Of a stretch of 38,752 nucleotides of DNA, positions 3,744-38,752 are shown piece by piece. Source of the stretch: Octopus sinensis (taxonomy: Eukaryota); assembly GCF_006345805.1 (NCBI RefSeq), contig NW_021835757.1, positions 1-38,752 on the forward strand, in the 5' to 3' direction. Numbering within the stretch: position 1 is the first letter of the stretch; every line of letters starts with the position of its first letter. Below the pieces are notes generated by a model. The model searched no databases. It worked only from the letters and a program-made list of their open reading frames with translations, and was not told the DNA's origin. The position numbers were made by a program, and so were the translations under genes.

Positions 3744-4183
3744 CAACCATATGTGCGAGACAGGGTGATCTCATATCAAGAGAAACAGCGCATAACCTTG
3801 CAGGTGGCGCCCAGTTAGAATTTTCTTCAGATCGAGTAGCCCATCCCGCTGAAAAGGTCCCTGAATAAGGGTTGTTTAAGGATGTTGAACGAAACACCCA
3901 TGTTTCCAAAGGCGAATTATTTAAACCCCAAAGAATTCCTCTCAACACATGGCTATGATGCTCACCCACTACTTCCGCTCGTGATCAGAGATGCACATAT
4001 TGTCAGCCACTAAGGGACATGCTCAACTGGTTATGGTTAAACAATTGACAAGCAAAACTGACAAGCAGAATATTTACTGTAGCTCATCTTTTATACCAGG
4101 ACAAAACAATGTACATGATAACACTGCCAATCAGTTAAGATCAGAAGCCATGAGAGTCACTATCTGGTACTGCATCAGGGCAT
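3744..4183. mobile_element. ~550-nt element, partial copy fused to a LINE 3' fragment
   Basis: Matches the family from caaccatatgtgcg to gcatcagggcat; directly joined to 3466-3743. Confidence 0.85.
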
Positions 4184-4204
4184 TTATTATTATTATTATT
4201 ATTA

Positions 4205-4281
<77 letters not shown>

Positions 4282-4745
4282 GAGTGAGAGAGCAGTTCAT
4301 GCCATCAAAGTGACACTGGGGTAAAATATACGAAGCCCAGTATACCCATCATGACTACCCGTCTGATAAGGGTACACTAGGCACATGCATCACAACCATA
4401 TGTGCGCAACAGGGTGATCTCATATCAAGATAAACAGCACATGACCATACAGGTGGGGCCCAGTTAGAAATTTCTTCAGGTTGAGTAGCCCATCCCGCTC
4501 AAAAGGTCCCTGAATAAGGGTTGTTTAAGGATGTTGAAAGAACCACCCATGTTTCCAGAGGTGAATTATTCAAACCCCAAGAATCCCTCTCAACACATGG
4601 CTATGATGCACCCCCACTACTTCTGCTCGTGGTCAGAGATGCACATATCGTCAGCCACTAAGGGACATGCTCAACTGGTTAAGGTCAAACAACTGACAAG
4701 CAAATCTGTGGTATTGGGCAGAATATTTGCTGTAGCCCATCTTTT
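4282..4745. mobile_element. ~550-nt element, partial copy fused to the GC-rich segment
   Basis: Matches the family up to gcccatctttt, then switches abruptly to unrelated GC-rich sequence. Confidence 0.85.
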
Positions 4746-12589: not shown

Positions 12590-13165
12590 AAGGCGGCAAG
12601 CTAGCAGAATCGTAAACCGCGCCGGACAAAATGCTTAGTCGCATTTCGTCCGTCTTTACCACCTATGTTCAAATTCCATCGAGCTCAACTTCGCCTTCCA
12701 TCCTTTCGAAGTCGATAAAGTACCAGTTGAGCATTGCTGTCCTTGTACTAAAATTTGAACCCAATATTCTTTTCTACTACAGCCAGAAGGCCCGAAAATT
12801 TGGAGAAGAGGGCCAGTCGATTAGATCGACCCCAGTACGCAACTGGTACTTAATTTTTCTACCCAGAAGGGATGAAACGCAAAGTCGACCTCGGCGGAAT
12901 TTGAACTCAGAACGTAAAGACAGACAGAATACCTATTTCTTTACTACCCACAAGGGGCTAAACACAGAGGGAACAAACAAGGACAGACAGACGGATTAAG
13001 TCGATTATATCGACCCCAGTGCGTAACTAGTACTTAATTTATCGACCCCGAAAGGATGAAAGGCAAAGTCGACCTCGGCGGAATTTGAACTCAGAACGTA
13101 ACGGCAGACGAAATACGGCTACGCATTTCGCCCGGGGTGCTAACGTTTCTGCCAGCTCGCCGCCT
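12590..13165. mobile_element. SINE family A cluster: + copy at 12590-12770 and - strand dimer at 12770-13165
   Basis: Family motifs on both strands. Confidence 0.75.
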
Positions 13166-14729: not shown

Positions 14730-14796
<67 letters not shown>

Positions 14797-14801
<5 letters not shown>

Positions 14802-15004
14802 ATCACTAGCCACTACACACATTTTTTTCTCCTTGTTTCTTTCTGTGGAAGAGCGTAGGCTCGAAACGTTAAGACTTTTTCAATTCCCGACCGTTATACT
14901 AATACATCTGTTTGTTTTCTACACCACCTGTCTTCGTCTTTTGTTATTTTGTTTTTGTAAAATATCCTTATATATATATGTATGTATGTATGTATATGCA
15001 TATG

Positions 15005-15078
<74 letters not shown>

Positions 15079-15371
15079 GTATAGTATATAGTATATATAT
15101 ATATATATATATTATATGATAGAGCAATAGCCACTACACACATTTTCTCTCCTTGTTTCTTTCTGTGGAAGAGCGTAGGCTCGAAACGTTAAAGACTTTT
15201 TCAATCCCGACCGTGATACTAATACATCTGTTTGTTTTCTACACCACCTGTTTCGTCTTTTGTTATTGTTTTTTGTAAAAATACCTATATATATATGTAT
15301 GTATGTATGTATATGCATATGTCTGTTATATATATATATATATATATTAATATATATATTATATATATATA

Positions 15372-15405
<34 letters not shown>
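14797..15405 (+). mobile_element. Tandem pair of ~170-nt (TA)n-embedded elements carrying minimal hammerhead-like motifs
   Basis: Units at about 14797-14968 and 15117-15287, each with ctgtggaagagcgtaggctcgaaacgtta; third copy at 26735-27085. Confidence 0.65.
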
Positions 15406-15410
<5 letters not shown>

Positions 15411-15989
15411 TACTTGACCCTAAATAAAAAATAAGCCTTGAGTTTGATTTGTTCGACTAAACCCTTCAAAACGGTCCCTCAGCGTTGCAGCAATCCAATG
15501 ACTACAACAAATAATAGAAAAAATATATATATTTCCTTTTTTTAATAATAAAATTTTTAAATGGCATCAAGTGGCGAAAAACAGAGAGTAGTAAGGGAAA
15601 ATGGGAGAATGGGGAGTAAAGAAGAGAAAACACTCCTCTTCATTATGCGAAATGTAAAAGCTCTCGAGTAGGACTCAAAGTCTGTTAAGAAAATATTAAC
15701 AACAGCTAAGTAAACACTTGGTATCATCGTCAAGTCTGACCATGGCAACAACAGTAACACCTCTGCTGTCACCGACATCGATGGCGGTAGCATTGAAATT
15801 AGTGCAAACGTAATAAGAGACAACAGCCGGATCGGCTGCTAGCGACAGCGCCCACCACCACTACCACCGCCGCCGCCATTACTATTCTACAACCGAAAAG
15901 CGTCTCGTTTTTTTTAACCCCATTATTTCAACAGTCGGGACTTCTACAAACTACAAGGCAATATCGTTCCTGAAAAAAAAAAATATTAA

Positions 15990-17451: not shown

Positions 17452-18303
17452 CGGCGAACTGGCAGAAACTTTAGCACGCCGGGCGAAATGCGTAGCCGTA
17501 CTTCGTCTGCCGTTACGTTCTGAGTTCAAATTCCACCAAGGTCGACTTCGCCTATCATCCTTTCGGGGTCGATAAATTAAGTACCAGTTACGCACTGGGG
17601 TCGATATAATCGACTTAATCCGTCTGTCTGTCCTTGTTTGTCCCCTCTATGTTTAGCCCCTTGTGGGTAGTAAAGAAATAAGAAACGTTAGCACGCCGGA
17701 CGAAATGCTTAGTGGTATTTCGTCTGTCGTTACGTTCTGAGTTCAAATTCCGCCGAGGACGACTTTGCCTTTCATCTTTTCGGGGTCAATAAATTAAGTA
17801 CCAGTTACGCACTGGGGTCGATATAATCGACTTGATCCGTTTGTCTGTCCTTGTTTGTCCTCTCTGTGTTTAGACCCTTGTGGGTAGTAAAGAAATAGGT
17901 ATTTCGTCTGCCGTTACGTTCTGAGTTCAAATTCTGCCGAGGTCGACTTTGCCTTTCATCCTTTCGGGGTCGATTAAATAAGTACCAGTTACGCACTGGG
18001 GTCGATATAATTGACTTAATCCGTTTGTCTGTCCTTGTTTGTCCGCTCTATGTTTAGCCCCTTCTGGGCAATAAAGAAATAAGAAACGTTAGCACGCCGG
18101 ACGAAATGCTTAGCGATATTTCGTCTGTCGTTACGTTGTGAGTTCAAATTCCGCCGAGGTCGACTTGGCCTTTCATCCTTTCGGGATCGATTAAATAAGT
18201 ACCAGATACGCATTGGGGTCGATACAATCGACTTAATCCGTTTGTCTGTCCTTGTTTGTCCTCTCTGTGTTTAGCCCCTTGTGGGTAGTAAAGAAATAGG
18301 TAT
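17452..18303 (+). mobile_element. Head-to-tail tetramer of SINE family A
   Basis: Four units (about 17452-17681, 17682-17898, 17899-18081, 18082-18303), each ending ...aaagaaata. Confidence 0.85.
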
Positions 18304-19139
18304 TTATTTCCGCATTTTGAATAAAAATAAAATCCCGTCTTAGTTTCAGGAGACGGGGGTAATGCTGAAAAACAAGTTGTGTAAAAAGATTTGTGGGATC
18401 TCATACATTTTGTGCCTATGCATTTCTGGACTTTATTTTTTTACCCCTCATTTTCACCATTTTCCTGGAAACTTTCTTTGTGTGTGAGCCCGCCAAAATG
18501 GATGAGCTCGCACACATGCATACTGACACACGTCACAAGATGAAATTATGATGTGTGTCAGTATTTACGTGTGCAAGCCTATCAATTTCTTTACATATTA
18601 AATTCCGATAAAATCGTAATCTACATCATCTGAAAAATATTTATAGAAAATTCGTTACAAAATGGCCATTTTGCTAGAAGTTAAGAGGAAACAAACTCGA
18701 CTCATGTGAATTTTTCAAAGCTTCTCTCTCCATCTTCGGAGAAAACTATTTATAACAAATTCCGATATAATCAGATTCTGGTCCATCTGAAGCATATTTG
18801 TAAAAGAATGTCATTAATAAATATCCATTTTTCTGGATTTTATGAGGAAACAAAGTTGGTGAAGCACGTTTGTATAGATATGTTCAACGTGTCTTCCCTC
18901 ATATCTATATTTTACAGAGATTTTTAACAAAAGCATTCCACTACTATTCTTTCGTATTGTGGTAGATCTGACCTTTCCATTATTGAAACTTCTAAGGTGC
19001 TTAAATTCAAGATTGCTCTTTCTGCGAATTGTATTGTTTTTATGTTTTGTCCACAACATTATTCTCTATGGGAAGATGGCATTCCAATCTCATTTCCAGA
19101 CATCTCATATAGCGTATGTATGGGTGGAAGGATGCATGT

Positions 19140-23180: not shown

Positions 23181-23343
23181 ATGACTACAAATGTTGAAGA
23201 AGCGAAAATCCCTAAAGACACTGACGCCATGTCACGAGGCAGTTGGGACAGTAAAATTGAATTCATCCTCGCCTGTATTGGCTATTCCGTTGGATTAGGC
23301 AATGTGTGGCGTTTCCCGTACTTAGTTTTCAAGAACGGAGGTG
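23181..23343 (+). CDS. SLC6 (neurotransmitter:sodium symporter) amino-acid transporter, glycine/proline-transporter-like, coding exon 1
   Basis: Acceptor tttcag ends at 23168 and ATG is at 23181. Translates [54 protein letters not shown], the SLC6 TM1 signature with G rather than the monoamine-transporter D. Donor G|gtaag, phase 1. Confidence 0.95.
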
Positions 23344-27279: not shown

Positions 27280-27411
27280 GTGCATTCCTTATACCATACT
27301 GGATTATGCAGCTGGTTGTAGGAATGCCATTATTTTTTCTGGAGCTTTCCTTTGGTCAGTTTGCAAGTCTTGGACCAATAACCATTTGGCGAGTGATCCC
27401 TTTGTTAAAAG
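27280..27411 (+). CDS. SLC6 transporter coding exon 2
   Basis: ttttgcag| [45 protein letters not shown]|gtac. 132 nt, phase 1-1, in frame with exon 1. Confidence 0.95.
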
Positions 27412-28085: not shown

Positions 28086-28324
28086 ATTAAAATGATTGAT
28101 GTCAAATAAGTCAACGCCAAATAGGCGGCGTCAAAATGGCTGTGCTAAAACCTCTCTTATCCATAGCCGACAGCTCTAACGTTTCAGCGAGTTCATTACC
28201 TTGCATTACTGATTATTTTCACCAATCCACTGCCCTGCCCTGCAACGCTAACAGTATCGATCATGATAATTTACAAACAATCCAATCTTTTTTTCAATGT
28301 TTATATTAGTATTTTTATTTATTA

Positions 28325-28709
28325 CTAGCAGTATCGCCCGGCGTTGCTCGGGTTTGTAAGGGAAATAACTATAAAGCATTTTTAGAGAGTTATAGCCAAA
28401 AAATAGCAAAAAAATGTATTAAAAATGGAAAAAAATGATGGTAAATTTTTTTTAAATCGTTGACTCATCATAGGCATTTTTAGAGCGTTACTTCCCTTAG
28501 CGAAAAAATGCATTAAAATGGAAAAAAATTATGGTAAATTATTTTTAAATCGTAGACTCATCGTAGACGCGCGCTAATACCCAGAAGGGCTCGATAGAAT
28601 CACAACTATAAGATACCCGGTTTGGTTAAACTGCACCGCAAAATGTGGGAGTAGTTCGGAATCTAAATCGTAGGAGACAGACACACAACCTTACTTTTAT
28701 ATATAAAGA
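28325..28709 (-). mobile_element. Non-autonomous Helitron
   Basis: Minus strand starts A|TCTTTATATATAAAAG and ends CCCGAGCAACGCCGGG-N-CTAG|T: 5' TC, subterminal hairpin, 3' CTAG, inserted at AT. Confidence 0.8.
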
Positions 28710-29015: not shown

Positions 29016-29177
29016 GTTTGGGTTATGCAATGGTCCTCTGCTCATTCTTTATAACCATCTACTATAATGTCATTATCACCTACTGTTTCACATATCTTTT
29101 TGCTTCCATGACCAGCACGCTCCCATACGCTAGCTGTAACAAAGAATATAGTTCACCGGAGTGTTTTGACGGAATCA
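29016..29177 (+). CDS. SLC6 transporter coding exon 3 (TM3 and start of EL2)
   Basis: ctttcag| GLGYAMVLCSFFITIYYNVIITYCFTYLFASMTSTLPYASCNKEYSSPECFDGI; includes the YYN motif and the EL2 cysteine pair. Donor A|gttaag keeps frame with the next exon. Confidence 0.9.
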
Positions 29178-29995: not shown

Positions 29996-30180
29996 ACTAT
30001 TATTATGTTTTTTCCTTCTTTCTTCAAATTTTCTTCCGTTTCTCGCCGAGTGTTTTCCATACACCTAGGGCAGAGAAGGGCATTGTATGCATTTCCAGAT
30101 TACACGCGCAAAAATTCAAAGATAAAATATGTATTTAAAAATTAATAACTAAATAAATTCATGGATGGATGTTATCATTA

Positions 30181-30267
<87 letters not shown>

Positions 30268-30271
<4 letters not shown>

Positions 30272-30639
30272 TAGTCTTCTTTTTATCATGTGCTTTCATT
30301 GCACTACCGAGTACAGCTCTGTGTGCCTTGGGTACGTGCTGTGGTTTGTTGTCTTATTTCCATGGCGTGCGGTGCCTAGTAGTGCTATTTTCTGTGTTAT
30401 ACATACTCGTTAGTCCTGGTCTTTTTGTTATGTATTTGTCTGAATATTGTTTTATCATACCTAATGCGCCAACGATGATAGACTCCACTTTCGAGTTACC
30501 TCTATCTCTAGGTTTTTGTATTTTGAAAGTTTCTCTGTTTCTTTTAGAAACATTATCATTTGTTGGTATTGATACATCGATTACAAAGCAACTTTTTTCT
30601 TGGTGATCTCTGACAACTATATTCGGCCTATTGGCTTTA

Positions 30640-30718
<79 letters not shown>

Positions 30719-31064
30719 GGTATATCCCAGAGTATGGTTGCTTTCTCATTTTCTGTGATCTTTTCTGGCGTATACTTATACTATCTTTTTTCTGTTGTTA
30801 TTCCATAGTGTTAGCATAGCTTCCAGTGTATGTAGGTCCCAACTTTGTCGTGTCTGTGAATATATTCCTTCTTAGCCAGGACTGGGCAGTCAGAGACAAT
30901 GATTTATTAGCTTAAGTAAGGAAGACCAAAGTGGTATTAACGTACACGAAGTAGTCTTCGCTGGGAGTTATGGTTTTGTTCAGTATGATATCGGTTTCCG
31001 TTGAATTCATATTTTCGCCGCTGTTTAGTAACGTTTCATTACCTGTGAATGATAATAAAAAAGA

Positions 31065-31119
<55 letters not shown>

Positions 31120-32045
31120 TAATAATATTGGATTTACCAAAGAAATACAAGTAACTGCAGTTACTTGTATTTCTTTTCATTACATGTTTTTGGTAATTTC
31201 TGGTGGGGAGGCTTTTTTCTTGTGCTGCAGTTAAAATCTTTCAGTCTCTGCTTTGAGTCCTGACCTTCTCAGCCATTGCTGGGATTTTGCTTTGTCTATT
31301 TCTTTTCTGTTTAGTGTAACCCAGTATTTGCCATGAAAGGACTTTTCTTGCTATCGTTTTATCATGATCCCTTGCTGTTCCAGTTTTGGTTTGGCTTTCA
31401 GTTGTTTTACAGCTTTTGTTGTTTCTTCTTTTTCATCATATTTTCTTCATATGATTTCTTTTTGTATTTGTTAGCTTCCTTCAAAACTGAATCCAGTTTT
31501 TTTTTGTTTTGTTCGTGTTTTGTGGCTATTTGTATTTGTTTTCCTTGCTTCTGAAGTAGGTATTTCTGTAGACCTGTGGTGGTTGGGTGATTATTTTGTA
31601 ATAGTTTTTAGCTGTATAAGGCCTCTGTTACCTTCTATAGGTTGAATATAACATTTCTATGTCAGATTTTGCGTGATGCATCCTAAATCCAGCCATTATT
31701 TTTCTTGTTTCCTGTCTGTTTTTGATTAGTTCACTTACAGTCCAGTTAAGAATATTGTACCTGTAACTTATAACTGGGATAGCTAGAGTGTTGATACCTC
31801 TTATTTTGTTTCTCGTACTGAGATCTGTTTTCAGTATTAATCTGATTCGTCTATAGTATTCTTTCATTTGTGTGTGTTGTATCGTGTCTAGTTCATTGAT
31901 TCCTAAGTATGCCTGGCTTTGGTCCAATTCTCTTATTTCTGTACCTAGTGTGATGTTGTTACTCTTAACTAGTTTTCTTCTTTTCTAATTTGCTTTGGCA
32001 CATTTTTCTAAGCCGAATTTCATGTTTATTTCTTTGGTAAATCCA
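30268..32045 (-). mobile_element. 5'-truncated R4/Dong-like LINE (RT end, CCHC, REL), interrupted at 30907-31176 by an inverted host-exon copy
   Basis: FTKEINMKFGLEKCAK; YLGINE...EYYRRIRLILKTDLSTRNKIRGINTLAIPVISY; GLKAETE..AAQEKSLPTRNY; IVSDCPVLAKKEYIHRHDKV; ANRPNIVVRDHQEKSCFVIDVSIP; (TAA)n at both ends. Confidence 0.85.
30907..31147 (-). repeat. Inverted duplicate of SLC6 exon 4 with flanking splice sites
   Basis: Reverse complement of 32027-32414 apart from a shorter microsatellite, a 3-nt deletion and three exon/donor-side substitutions. Confidence 0.95.
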
Positions 32046-32060
32046 TTATTATTATTATTA

Positions 32061-32132
<72 letters not shown>

Positions 32133-32208
32133 CTACTACTACTACTACCTACTACTATTACTATTATTACTATTACTATTACCATCATCATCATCATCAT
32201 CATCATCA

Positions 32209-32252
<44 letters not shown>

Positions 32253-32275
32253 TCTTTTTTTATTATCATTCACAG

Positions 32276-32375
32276 GTAATGAAACGTTACTAAACAGCGG
32301 CGAAAATATGAATTCATCAACAGAAACCGATATCATACTGAACAAAACCATAACTCCCAGTGAAGACTACTTCGT
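32276..32375 (+). CDS. SLC6 transporter coding exon 4 (glycosylated EL2)
   Basis: ttcacag| SNETLLNSGENMNSSTETDIILNKTITPSEDYF(V) |gtatgt. 100 nt, phase 1-2. TPSEDYF matches the SLC6 SP.EE(F/Y) motif; three N-X-S/T sequons. Confidence 0.88.
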
Positions 32376-33685
32376 GTATGTTAATACCACTTTGGTCTTC
32401 CTTACTTAAGCTAAATGCCTCCCTCAGATAATCAGTAGTGAACTGAGTCATTGAAGTGTCAAACTGATCTTAGATAAGGCGAAATTTGGTAGAAGTATCA
32501 CTATATTCGGGTATTTTGGGTATGCTGTTATTTTGAAAATACCGCACGATGTGACGACCGTGCTGTGCATGGTTACGGATTGCCCTTTGGCAAGGTATAA
32601 CACCCGTTCAGTCACCCTGCCAAGGATACAGCGAAGTCATTGGACTGCCGCATGACGGATTGTGAAGAGGTGGCAGTAGAGCTCAACTGAGCCAATCGTG
32701 CTTCTTACATTGATTCTGTGTGGAGGAATCCTAGAAGATCAACAGTCAGAATCGCCAAGATCTTATCAAGAGAGTAATTGCAATACATCTATAGGGGTGG
32801 CGTCCATGGTTGTACAACCATCTAATGAAAGATTCGCTATGACTCAAGCTACCACTTCAAGTGCATAGTAATGGAACTGGATAACGAGTCATGGGAATCC
32901 GTGAACTGCGAAAATAAATCACTGTATAATTGGTGGGTGCTATGTTAGGTTTCATCATGAGTTTGAATTTCAGCATCTTGTGAATCCATCTACAGCAGAA
33001 ACAGAATAGACAGTACAGAGCAGGGATATTTGGAACTATGTTGGACAATAATATACTGGACAGTGTGGTGGGTACAGAGATAAAGTGGACTGTAGAGGTC
33101 TGAAACACACTTGGTAATAGTGGACGGAGGCAGAGAAGGTAGTGGAAATGAGAAAAAGAATTGACAATGTAAACAAGACTAAGCAAGCTAAAGGAGGAGA
33201 AAATAATGGAAAACAGAGCCAGTGGGAAAATGGAGGACAGAAACATAGTGGTCAGCGGGGTATAGCGGCCTATAGTACAGTAGAGCAAAGAACTGGTTAG
33301 ATAGTGAGACAAGGATGGATAAGAACAGGTTGGATTATAGAAGAAACAGAATGGACAATGAGAGACAACAATAGACTGGATAGAGAACTGAGACAGGCGA
33401 GATATTGGGAAACAAAAACAAGCTGGACCGATGAGCATAGGCCTAAGGAGGGCAATGGAAGACAAGAGAGGGAAGAGTAGTGAAGAGGAGTGGAGCAACA
33501 AGCAAATTTGGTGATAGAAGACAGGAACAGAGCGGAGCGTGGTGAGCAGGACTACAGAAAACAGAGGAGGACAGAAGTAGATTGGATGAGGGACTGAAAC
33601 AGACAAATAGATTGACGAGCAAAGTAAATTCAAATTGCTCAGGCTGTCGAACAACAGTCTGAGAATTCAAATATACGTACTTATA

Positions 33686-34364: not shown

Positions 34365-35510
34365 TAGTGCAAGTTTTGAAGAATGTAGTTCGATTTTAAC
34401 AGTTATTTTTTCAAACTTATAATGTAAGTAGAAAGGAGCATATTCGGCACATTTTGCTTTATGAGTTCAATAAAGGCAACAACACAACGGAAAATGTGAG
34501 GAGTATTAATGCAATATATATGGGAATCGGACAATAAGCGGAAGCCAGTGTCAACGGTGGTTCCAGAAATTCCTAGCCTACAAAACTAGCCTCAATCTGG
34601 AAGATTTGCAGAGCTCGACGAGGACGTCCTGCAAACCCTGGTGGAACAAAATCTCATCGTAACTGTTGAGGAACTAGCAGAGGAGCTTGGATTTGGTCAT
34701 TCAACCATTCATCGAAACCTGCATGCCATCGGAAAAGTCAGCAAATTGGGTCAATAGGTTCCTCACAAACTTTCTTAGTCTAATCGCACGCAGAGAATGA
34801 ATACGTGCTGTTCTTTGCTGTTACTTCTCAGGAATAAACCGTTTTTGGACCGAATAGTGACTAGTGACAAGAAATGGGTTCTCTATAAAAAGGTCAAGCG
34901 CCGAAGATAGTAGATAGAAAAAGGAAAAACATCGGCACCTCTGGCTAAAGAAAGTCTTCACCCACGTAAGGTTTTGTTATCTGTTTGGTGGGATATGAAA
35001 GGTTTAGTTCACTTTGAACATTCAAACCCAAACCAAACGGTAACAAGAGATCTACTGCGAGCAGCTTGAACGGCTTAAGTAAGCGATAGAAGAAAAACGA
35101 CCATCTTTACTTTCAAAATGAAAGGTGTTCTTCCATCAGGATAATGTTCGACCACATACAGCGAGGATGACATTCGAAAGGCTGGAGCAGTTTGAATGGA
35201 AAACGATGCCCTACCCACCATATTCGCCGGACACTGCCCCATCTGATTGTCATATTTATTCTGAAGTCTTCAAAATCATTTGGACGAGGAAAATATGAAT
35301 TCTGTAAACGAAGCCAGAACAGCATTGGAGGAGTATTTTTCATCGCGGACAAGTGAATTTTGGAAGAGGGGCCTTGCAAGTCTACCAGATATATGGAAGA
35401 ACATTGTAGATACTGAAGGAGAGTATATTCTAGATTTTAAAATACTTTGTTCATCTTAATTTTGAAAATAAAAGAAGTTTAAAAAATCCGCATTAAGGGA
35501 TGACTCAATT
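34365..35510 (+). mobile_element. Degenerate mariner (DD34D-type) transposon
   Basis: EHIRHILLYEFNKG, (W)VPHKL, RIVTSDKKWVLY, WWDMKGLVHFE, FHQDNVRPH, PPYSPDTAPSD; multiple stops and frameshifts. Confidence 0.9.
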
Positions 35511-37418: not shown

Positions 37419-37551
37419 CCATAACGTCCTCAAACAGAGCAGCGGTATTGACGTCCCGGGTAACTTTCAGTGGAAGCTAACAGTAAATCTAATTTTAGCC
37501 TGGTTCGTTGTGTTTGTCGTTCTCGTCAGAGGCATCAAGACCTTAGGCAAG
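37419..37551 (+). CDS. SLC6 transporter coding exon 5 (TM4); gene continues past the window end
   Basis: tttcag|C HNVLKQSSGIDVPGNFQWKLTVNLILAWFVVFVVLVRGIKTLGK |gtattt. Phase 2-0, consistent with exon 4. Confidence 0.92.
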
Positions 37552-38105: not shown

Positions 38106-38526
38106 AGACCTTCTCTCTTCTTTACTGCCTGCTCTTCCGTTTCACCTTGGCACCTTTGCGATGTTCTCTCCTTTTCAATTTCTCTCCTTTGTGCTGTTTG
38201 CTCTTCCGTTAAATCTTGGCGCCTTTGCGATGCTCTCATTCTTAGACCTTCTCTCCTCTCTGCTGCTTTGCTTTTCTGTTTCATCTTACCGCTTTTGTGC
38301 TGCTCTCTGTCTTTGGATATCTCTGTTTTGTGCAAAGAGGTTCTCCTTTTCATTTTGACGTCTTCGAACCTATCGTCTTACATCTTGTGCACTTCTCTCT
38401 TGTCTCATTTCTTGTGAACGATTTGATAATATATTTTTTAATCCTCTATTTTTTAAAAATCTTCTTGCGTCCAGTTGTGTTTTGTATTTTGTTTTTCGCT
38501 CTATCCATGCTTGCTTTAAGATTTGA

Positions 38527-38752
38527 CTAGCAGTATCGCCCGGCGTTGCTCGGGTTTGTAAGGGAAATAACTATATAAGCATTTTTAGAGATTTATAGCC
38601 AAAAAATAGCAAAAAAATGCATTACAGATGGAAAAAAAATTATGGTAAATTTTTTTTTAAATCGTTGACTCATCGTAGACATTTTTAGAGAGTTACTTCC
38701 CTTATATAATAGCGAAAAAAATGCATTAAAATGGAAAAAATGATGGTAATTT
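38527..38752 (-). mobile_element. Non-autonomous Helitron, second copy (cut by the window end)
   Basis: ctagcagtatcgcccggcgttgctcgggtttgtaagggaaataac identical to 28325 onward. Confidence 0.8.

Follow-up and report, generated by a model that had tools for sequence, protein, structure and literature searches.

Editing-complementary sequences are described in a 2024 review as intronic complements of a coding sequence in the same pre-mRNA, for example at the glutamate receptor R/G site, which pair with it briefly and imperfectly and give selective editing; recoding sites use short, interrupted pairing, perfect duplexes of more than ~50 bp are edited promiscuously at 40-50% of their adenosines, and the structures presumed to mediate cephalopod editing are said to be unknown (PMC11019741). 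Squid ADARs edit perfect duplexes (PMC10278661) and double-stranded RNA over a pyrimidine tract leads to exon exclusion and decay in RELL2 (PMC9105294). Skipping is also expected near inverted Alu pairs, whose intronic repeat arms lie in both flanking introns and loop the exon out (PMC13019944). At the level of DNA, inversions templated by a fold-back have been described in which the opposite end shows 0-5 nt of microhomology (PMC11724301). Dong elements sit in (TAA)n (PMC3812793), and Dong-R4 is reported as abundant and recently active in Octopus vulgaris (PMC3812793, PMC13282606).

No natural intronic inverted copy of an exon together with both of its splice sites was found in the literature searched, a weak negative since most subscription papers fell outside its scope. 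Here we describe such a copy in an octopus transporter gene.

An inverted copy of exon 4 in a transporter gene

The window analysed is a whole contig of 38,752 nt (G000:C12228). A five-exon plus-strand model with AG/GT ends (coding exons 23181-23343, 27280-27411, 29016-29177, 32276-32375 and 37419-37551) is identical at 230/230 residues to the annotated protein P0005, in which PF00209 is found at E 7e-77, identifying it as an SLC6 (SNF family) transporter. Its source name is glycine transporter 2-like protein of Octopus sinensis, the substrate being name-based; it is 93% identical to P0002, source-named glycine transporter 2 of Octopus bimaculoides, and there is 70% identity to an Argonauta protein. 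Exon 4, of 100 nt, encodes EL2, and the three sequons NET, NSS and NKT claimed for it in the original prediction are present on translation and are kept in the Octopus bimaculoides and Argonauta proteins. In contigs that are likely RNA the match to exon 4 stops precisely at 32276 and 32375, where letters of exon 3 and exon 5 take over, and the last 30 letters of exon 3 are the loose ends before exon 4 in runs X5 and X6. At window position 37420, the first full codon of exon 5, the letter in X6 (organism A) gives Asn, like O. bimaculoides, while X5 (organism B) has the window's letter (His).

The window ends before the next exon. The 3' exons of the gene lie at G000:C18:14249802-14277571 (83-89% identity for 5/6 matches), 3 kb past a 100-N gap, and an exon for residues ~222-260 was not found in the 70 kb of C18 searched. 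The assembly has likely divided a transporter gene that is itself intact. The gap, within G000:C18:14249802-14280726, is where this contig likely belongs. Homologue searches returned 4 and 2 proteins, none of them informative on the inverted copy. Elsewhere in the assembly, clustered SNF-family matches that are long and compact with a few stops inside occur on C1794, C7757, C8223, C10274, C12468, C12598, C8460 and C8901, unlike the chromosomal long-intron genes; they may represent a compact expansion, or genes with tiny introns from another organism that was assembled along with this one, and the matches on C1794, C10837 and C11091 score identically.

Self-BLAST, a repeat search and alignment all give 30907-31147 as the reverse complement of 32027-32414, the best HSP having 216 columns at 94.9% (E 2e-92). 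The copy lies in the same intron as exon 4, 1.2 kb upstream of it, and contains the entire exon and both splice sites: it holds 39 nt of donor-side intron, exon 4, the acceptor and pyrimidine tract, ~62 nt of microsatellite and 19 nt of the 5' end of a LINE. The anatomy originally predicted, namely a copy over the acceptor, the 100-nt exon and ~39 nt of donor-side intron with an ~880-nt spacer, is therefore as measured, the spacer being 879 nt (31148-32026) and the distance between the unique ~160-nt cores 1,193 nt. By alignment, each unique core is ~156-159 nt, followed by microsatellite and then by the 19 nt common to both arms. The core differences also match those predicted: a 3-nt in-frame loss of one Ser in the copy, three substitutions (exon/copy A/G at 32322, T/C at 32361 and T/C at 32379) and a microsatellite of ~62 nt in the copy against ~207 nt at the source (32046-32252, a compound (ATT/AGT/ACT/ATC)n tract); a T-run 1 nt shorter can be added to these. 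In a DNA search of its own genome, the core query 32262-32420 gave 2 matches, both in this contig. A second gene on the minus strand was rejected as an explanation, since the copy is one exon inside a LINE, without any other exon-4 match. The inverted copy is most likely a real, and unusual, piece of anatomy.

Inverted pairs as such are not rare in this genome. In 40 arbitrary 10-kb stretches (400 kb), searched for inverted pairs of at least 100 nt and at least 90% identity within 3 kb, 10 pairs were found, so that long duplex-forming pairs must be regarded as common; they also occur in the 3' introns of the transporter gene. Nine of the 10 were multi-copy repeats and one pair fell outside that test: five of the 10 had arms matching 13 or more other sampled stretches and four more were multi-copy genome-wide. 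No arm of unique coding sequence was seen in this sample, and inverted copies of unique sequence are thus not common. An estimate of 150-310 exon-covering inversions per genome was withdrawn, as it had counted low-copy-looking arms and 4/4 of those checked were multi-copy. One sampled pair, at L055:6961-8482, has a partner 95% identical against 89% for the next genomic copy and is likely a second local inverted duplication. The window itself holds another inverted pair (12815-13150 with 17681-18016, 91%) and direct duplications of 82-96% identity (1-618, 2054-2667 and 3744-4745; 17464-18305; 14731-15412; 28324-28540 with 38526-38752).

A templated insert within an old LINE

The copy interrupts a minus-strand LINE that extends from 32046 to about 30173 and is old, 5'-truncated and frameshifted. 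Its 5' part (31155-32046, the end of the reverse transcriptase region) forms the duplex spacer and its 3' part (30173-30908) ends in a (TAA)n tract, both matching other genomic copies; 19 of the 24 LINE loci fetched match both sides of the insert. No Pfam domain was recognised in the window's own LINE fragments, whereas the sister copy L019 gave RVT_1 at E 1.2e-7 (32 bits against a cut-off of 29.6), its zf-RVT score of 25.9 being under the cut-off of 27.5. A (TAA)n run was present at 22/24 LINE loci compared to 38/200 random pieces, and the microsatellite at 32046-32252 is the LINE's target site. By its reverse transcriptase and (TAA)n insertion the host element is a Dong/R4-like LINE, a putative clade name that goes by the target site and by sequence motifs. 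Two short copies, L013 and L014, share a nearly identical 5' junction, and L013 carries a tandem repeat of about 770 nt of LINE.

Where 11/11 aligned LINE copies have 24 nt, the window has an insert of 246 nt (30909-31154). There is a 2-nt microhomology at its 30907-30908 end, and the other end forms a perfect fold-back palindrome without a loop (31139-31176, 19-bp arms), at whose middle is a 6-nt palindrome that the LINE itself already had; one arm contains a 9-nt microhomology to 32030-32038. Hairpin arms of at least 12 bp were found at only 2/400 random positions, and in 6 background pairs the longest fold-back arm was 11 bp, so that nothing comparable was seen there. The template lies 0.9-1.3 kb from the insert. 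Since the 5' junction of the LINE itself is part of the insert, and since the hairpin repeats a 3-nt LINE deletion private to the window's copy, the insert must have been made after the LINE had inserted. Furthermore, the copy diverges from the exon by 3/156, or 1.9% (95% CI 0.4-5.5%), against a LINE-to-LINE mismatch of at least 10.3% between the window's LINE and 20 matching stretches of other copies. An origin during retrotransposition was rejected on these grounds, the LINE 5' junction being inside the insert and the divergence far below that of the LINE.

From these sequence features it is likely that the insert was made by template switching during DNA repair inside the old LINE. A broken end at 31155 would have folded back on the short palindrome and copied about 17 nt of itself. 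Microhomology would then have taken it ~870 nt away to 32030, from where copying ran across the microsatellite and exon 4 as far as 32414 before the end rejoined the LINE at 30908. Related template-switch events go under the names FoSTeS/MMBIR. It was originally suggested that the sequence was newly born. This holds in a relative sense only: at each of the three substitutions the copy has CpG where the exon has TpG/CpA, and it is therefore likely the copy that preserves the older state. All three are silent or intronic, and as 19/159 sites could create a CpG by transition, the chance of this pattern under random transitions in the copy is about 0.002. CpG decay on the exon side is thus the likely reading, with the copy retaining an older state or an older allele.

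Predicted pairing, splicing and editing of exon 4

In an MFE fold of 30880-32440, 154/159 exon-side bases are predicted to pair with the copy in a core duplex of -263 kcal/mol that would cover the pyrimidine tract, acceptor, exon and donor, flawed over ~155 bp by one bulge, one A:C mismatch and two G-U pairs. The near-perfect ~160-bp duplex first proposed, with two G-U pairs and one A:C mismatch at a Thr codon, is thus reproduced as a predicted duplex of 154 bp. The mismatch, previously singled out as an editing site of note, is the wobble base of Thr168; its editing would be silent (T168T) and it was discarded as a recoding site. Elsewhere 32/42 exon-4 adenosines would be non-silent if edited. 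The suggestion of an editing-complementary sequence fares less well, as the pairing is near-perfect over ~155 bp rather than short and interrupted. Since a near-perfect duplex would be promiscuously edited, including at the acceptor AG, it is more likely, on this analysis, that the duplex, if formed, would damage the message than tune it.

RNA was considered in the form of assembled contigs: 4/24 runs were compared over 32248-32700, the exon side, with exons 3 and 5 outside this stretch. X5 and X6, from unspecified tissues of animals that may or may not carry the copy, are RNA by a guess. In X5 (organism B) one 1,060-nt contig runs through exons 3, 4 and 5, and in X6 (organism A) a 713-nt contig runs through exons 3 and 4 and forks there, one path leading to exon 5 and the other, kept at depth 4.1, into intron 4 without splicing. 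Neither of these likely-RNA runs has any other letter in the 100 nt of exon 4, and neither has a contig break at the exon 3/4 join. Therefore, the majority of the mRNA has exon 4 unedited. Recoding by editing, which had been put forward, has no counterpart here at the level of contigs, which drop rare variants, so that minority editing, hyper-edited molecules and decayed skip products would be invisible.

A splicing switch had also been proposed, and this part was only partly upheld: exon 4 is spliced in the contigs of X5 and X6, but the existence of one annotated isoform is explained by skipping. P0001, of 153 aa, ends one residue after exon 3, and this ending is given by only two downstream AG positions, 35140 and 35166, both beyond exon 4; the joining of exon 3 to 35140 (or 35166) gives P0001 exactly. 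It is therefore likely that P0001 skips exon 4 and, judging by sequence, that some skipping occurs, P0001 being known from the protein alone and annotated on a contig cut off past exon 5, a truncation that may lead to unusual terminal exons in gene models. Both AG positions lie in a decayed sense-strand mariner in intron 4 (34400-35472, plus strand, HTH_48 and Transposase_1 matches) with an AATAAA at 35467, 327 nt beyond the candidate cryptic acceptor at 35140; a candidate cryptic terminal exon at 35140-35472 accounts for P0001. As was predicted for a 100-nt exon, joining exon 3 to exon 5 shifts the frame; a stop would follow 62 nt into exon 5, and the product would likely be degraded.

DNA runs differ from the RNA contigs in carrying letters of the copy. 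In X2 (organism B) the copy-type letters are at 32314/32322 only (the copy's deletion and G), together with the exon's two Ts, and in X4 (organism A) they are at 32361/32379 only (two Cs), together with the exon's insertion and A, and with a change of its own at 32410. X2 is not counted as independent as it may be the source of the window. Exactly these two blocks are expected as bubbles, on the basis of shared 31-mers, when exon and copy collapse in assembly. The pattern suggests such a collapse in both DNA assemblies and, indirectly, the presence of the copy in other animals. This is also a caution for editing calls: reads from the copy or collapsed contigs mimic editing, because one A-to-G change and two T-to-C changes separate the copy from the exon, as in X2, a DNA run that shows A>G at 32322. 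At 32440 the window has G where 3/3 covering runs have C, a consensus error or a rare allele.

Alternative readings and comparison with known systems

Taken together, these results probably, though by no means certainly, describe a repair-made copy of exon 4 that is a tolerated passenger with at most a minor effect or leak. Because the RNA assemblies hold exon 4 spliced and unedited, the copy is likely a tolerated accident. In most transcripts splice factors would reach exon 4 first, before pairing with the copy at a distance of 1.2 kb is possible; the minority of transcripts that do pair would be hyper-edited or skipped and then lost to nonsense-mediated decay (exon 3-5), or alternatively the skipped minority would end in the cryptic terminal exon in the mariner as the 153-aa isoform. 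It is unlikely, but consistent with the predicted 154-bp duplex over acceptor, exon and donor, that the copy is instead a cis antisense regulator which pairs with exon 4 in certain tissues, likely neural ones, or at low temperature, and either blocks both splice sites or recruits ADAR, lowering the full-length transporter or recoding the EL2 sequons. P0001, with its AATAAA, could then be the one skip product that would escape decay, the unspliced exon 4/intron 4 contig in X6 would fit, the squid and RELL2 reports offer precedents for both outcomes, and the many non-silent adenosines offer targets. Against such regulation are the unchanged letters and unbroken 3/4 joins in 2/2 likely-RNA runs, the silence of the A:C site, the damage to be expected from promiscuous and acceptor AG editing (our extension of the review) and the truncated contig behind the P0001 annotation.

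The remaining readings concern the copy itself. The insert could be real but private or polymorphic, the four differences being alleles at the exon-4 locus or the result of gene conversion, in which case the X5 and X6 animals need not carry it and would say nothing on its RNA effect. We consider this improbable. In its favour, the X2 and X4 contigs that hold copy-type letters go on into normal intron 4; in each run a single contig passes 32414 at even depth, no branch or loose end being there among those listed on the exon side, and X4 has its own change at 32410. Alleles or gene conversion at the exon could give such a picture. However, the copy-type letters fall in exactly the 31-mer bubble blocks under both organism labels, and are absent from 2/2 mRNA contigs and, at 32379, from the unspliced X6 contig. 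Assemblers prune branches into repeats, and this one seems to do so, because the X2 contig runs unbroken through a repeat matched by over 100 other contigs. Least probable, and in our opinion very doubtful, is an artefact of library preparation or assembly, in which a chimeric read that folds back on itself became part of a small unplaced contig and was then polished using the other allele. The contig is indeed an unplaced one of 38.7 kb, the assembly breaks the gene in two, the G that the window has at 32440 stands alone, and no read or contig spanning the copy junctions was seen in the runs, which were compared on the exon side only. Yet an artefact would hardly give an insertion whose entry and exit bear three clean switch signatures and at which 24 nt are lost, and a chimera would copy the same molecule, where here there are four differences and another microsatellite length. 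The differences are CpG-patterned and silent.

The locus amounts to an experiment set up by nature: a coding exon lies under a near-perfect exon-intron duplex, and the exons next to it, and probably relatives that lack the copy, can serve as controls. It offers a ready and cheap way to ask whether dsRNA directs editing of a coding exon in octopus. Editing or skipping, if present, would show a one-step origin of such an element; absence would show that co-transcriptional splicing outpaces near-perfect antisense at a distance of 1.2 kb, even where ADAR is abundant. The further idea, that an antisense strand against a whole exon arose in one step and makes transcripts end up truncated or degraded, or recodes the EL2 glycosylation sites by tissue or temperature, we hold to be rather unlikely. 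If true, a regulatory element would have been born in one step, giving a sequence-defined dsRNA substrate for coleoid coding-sequence editing.

How, then, does the locus compare with the systems described at the outset? It resembles the Dong/R4 LINEs in having a reverse transcriptase-bearing LINE in (TAA)n, with the difference that here the element, itself old, truncated and frameshifted, is only the host of the insert. There is a likeness to fold-back templated inverted insertions: a fold-back at the break, a local template, inversion and microhomology at the capturing end all have their equivalents here in the hairpin at one end, the near template, the 9 + 2 nt of microhomology and the 24-nt loss. 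It differs in having three switches and 246 nt, in being germline and in an animal intron, and in having a coding exon in the template. With the inverted Alu pairs it shares a long intramolecular duplex near an exon from which skipping is expected. In TBXT an inverted Alu pair is reportedly linked to exon skipping. Here, in place of repeat arms in both flanking introns, one arm is the exon itself, and so exon 4 would be masked, as by an antisense oligonucleotide, rather than looped out. Like an editing-complementary sequence the copy is an intronic complement of coding sequence in the same pre-mRNA, but unlike the known ones it is near-perfect over ~155 bp, includes both splice sites and lies upstream, with no editing in the RNA contigs at the majority level. 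On paper, then, it is like an antisense mask or an editing-complementary sequence, but its pairing is not of the selective kind and it has no majority effect in the RNA contigs.
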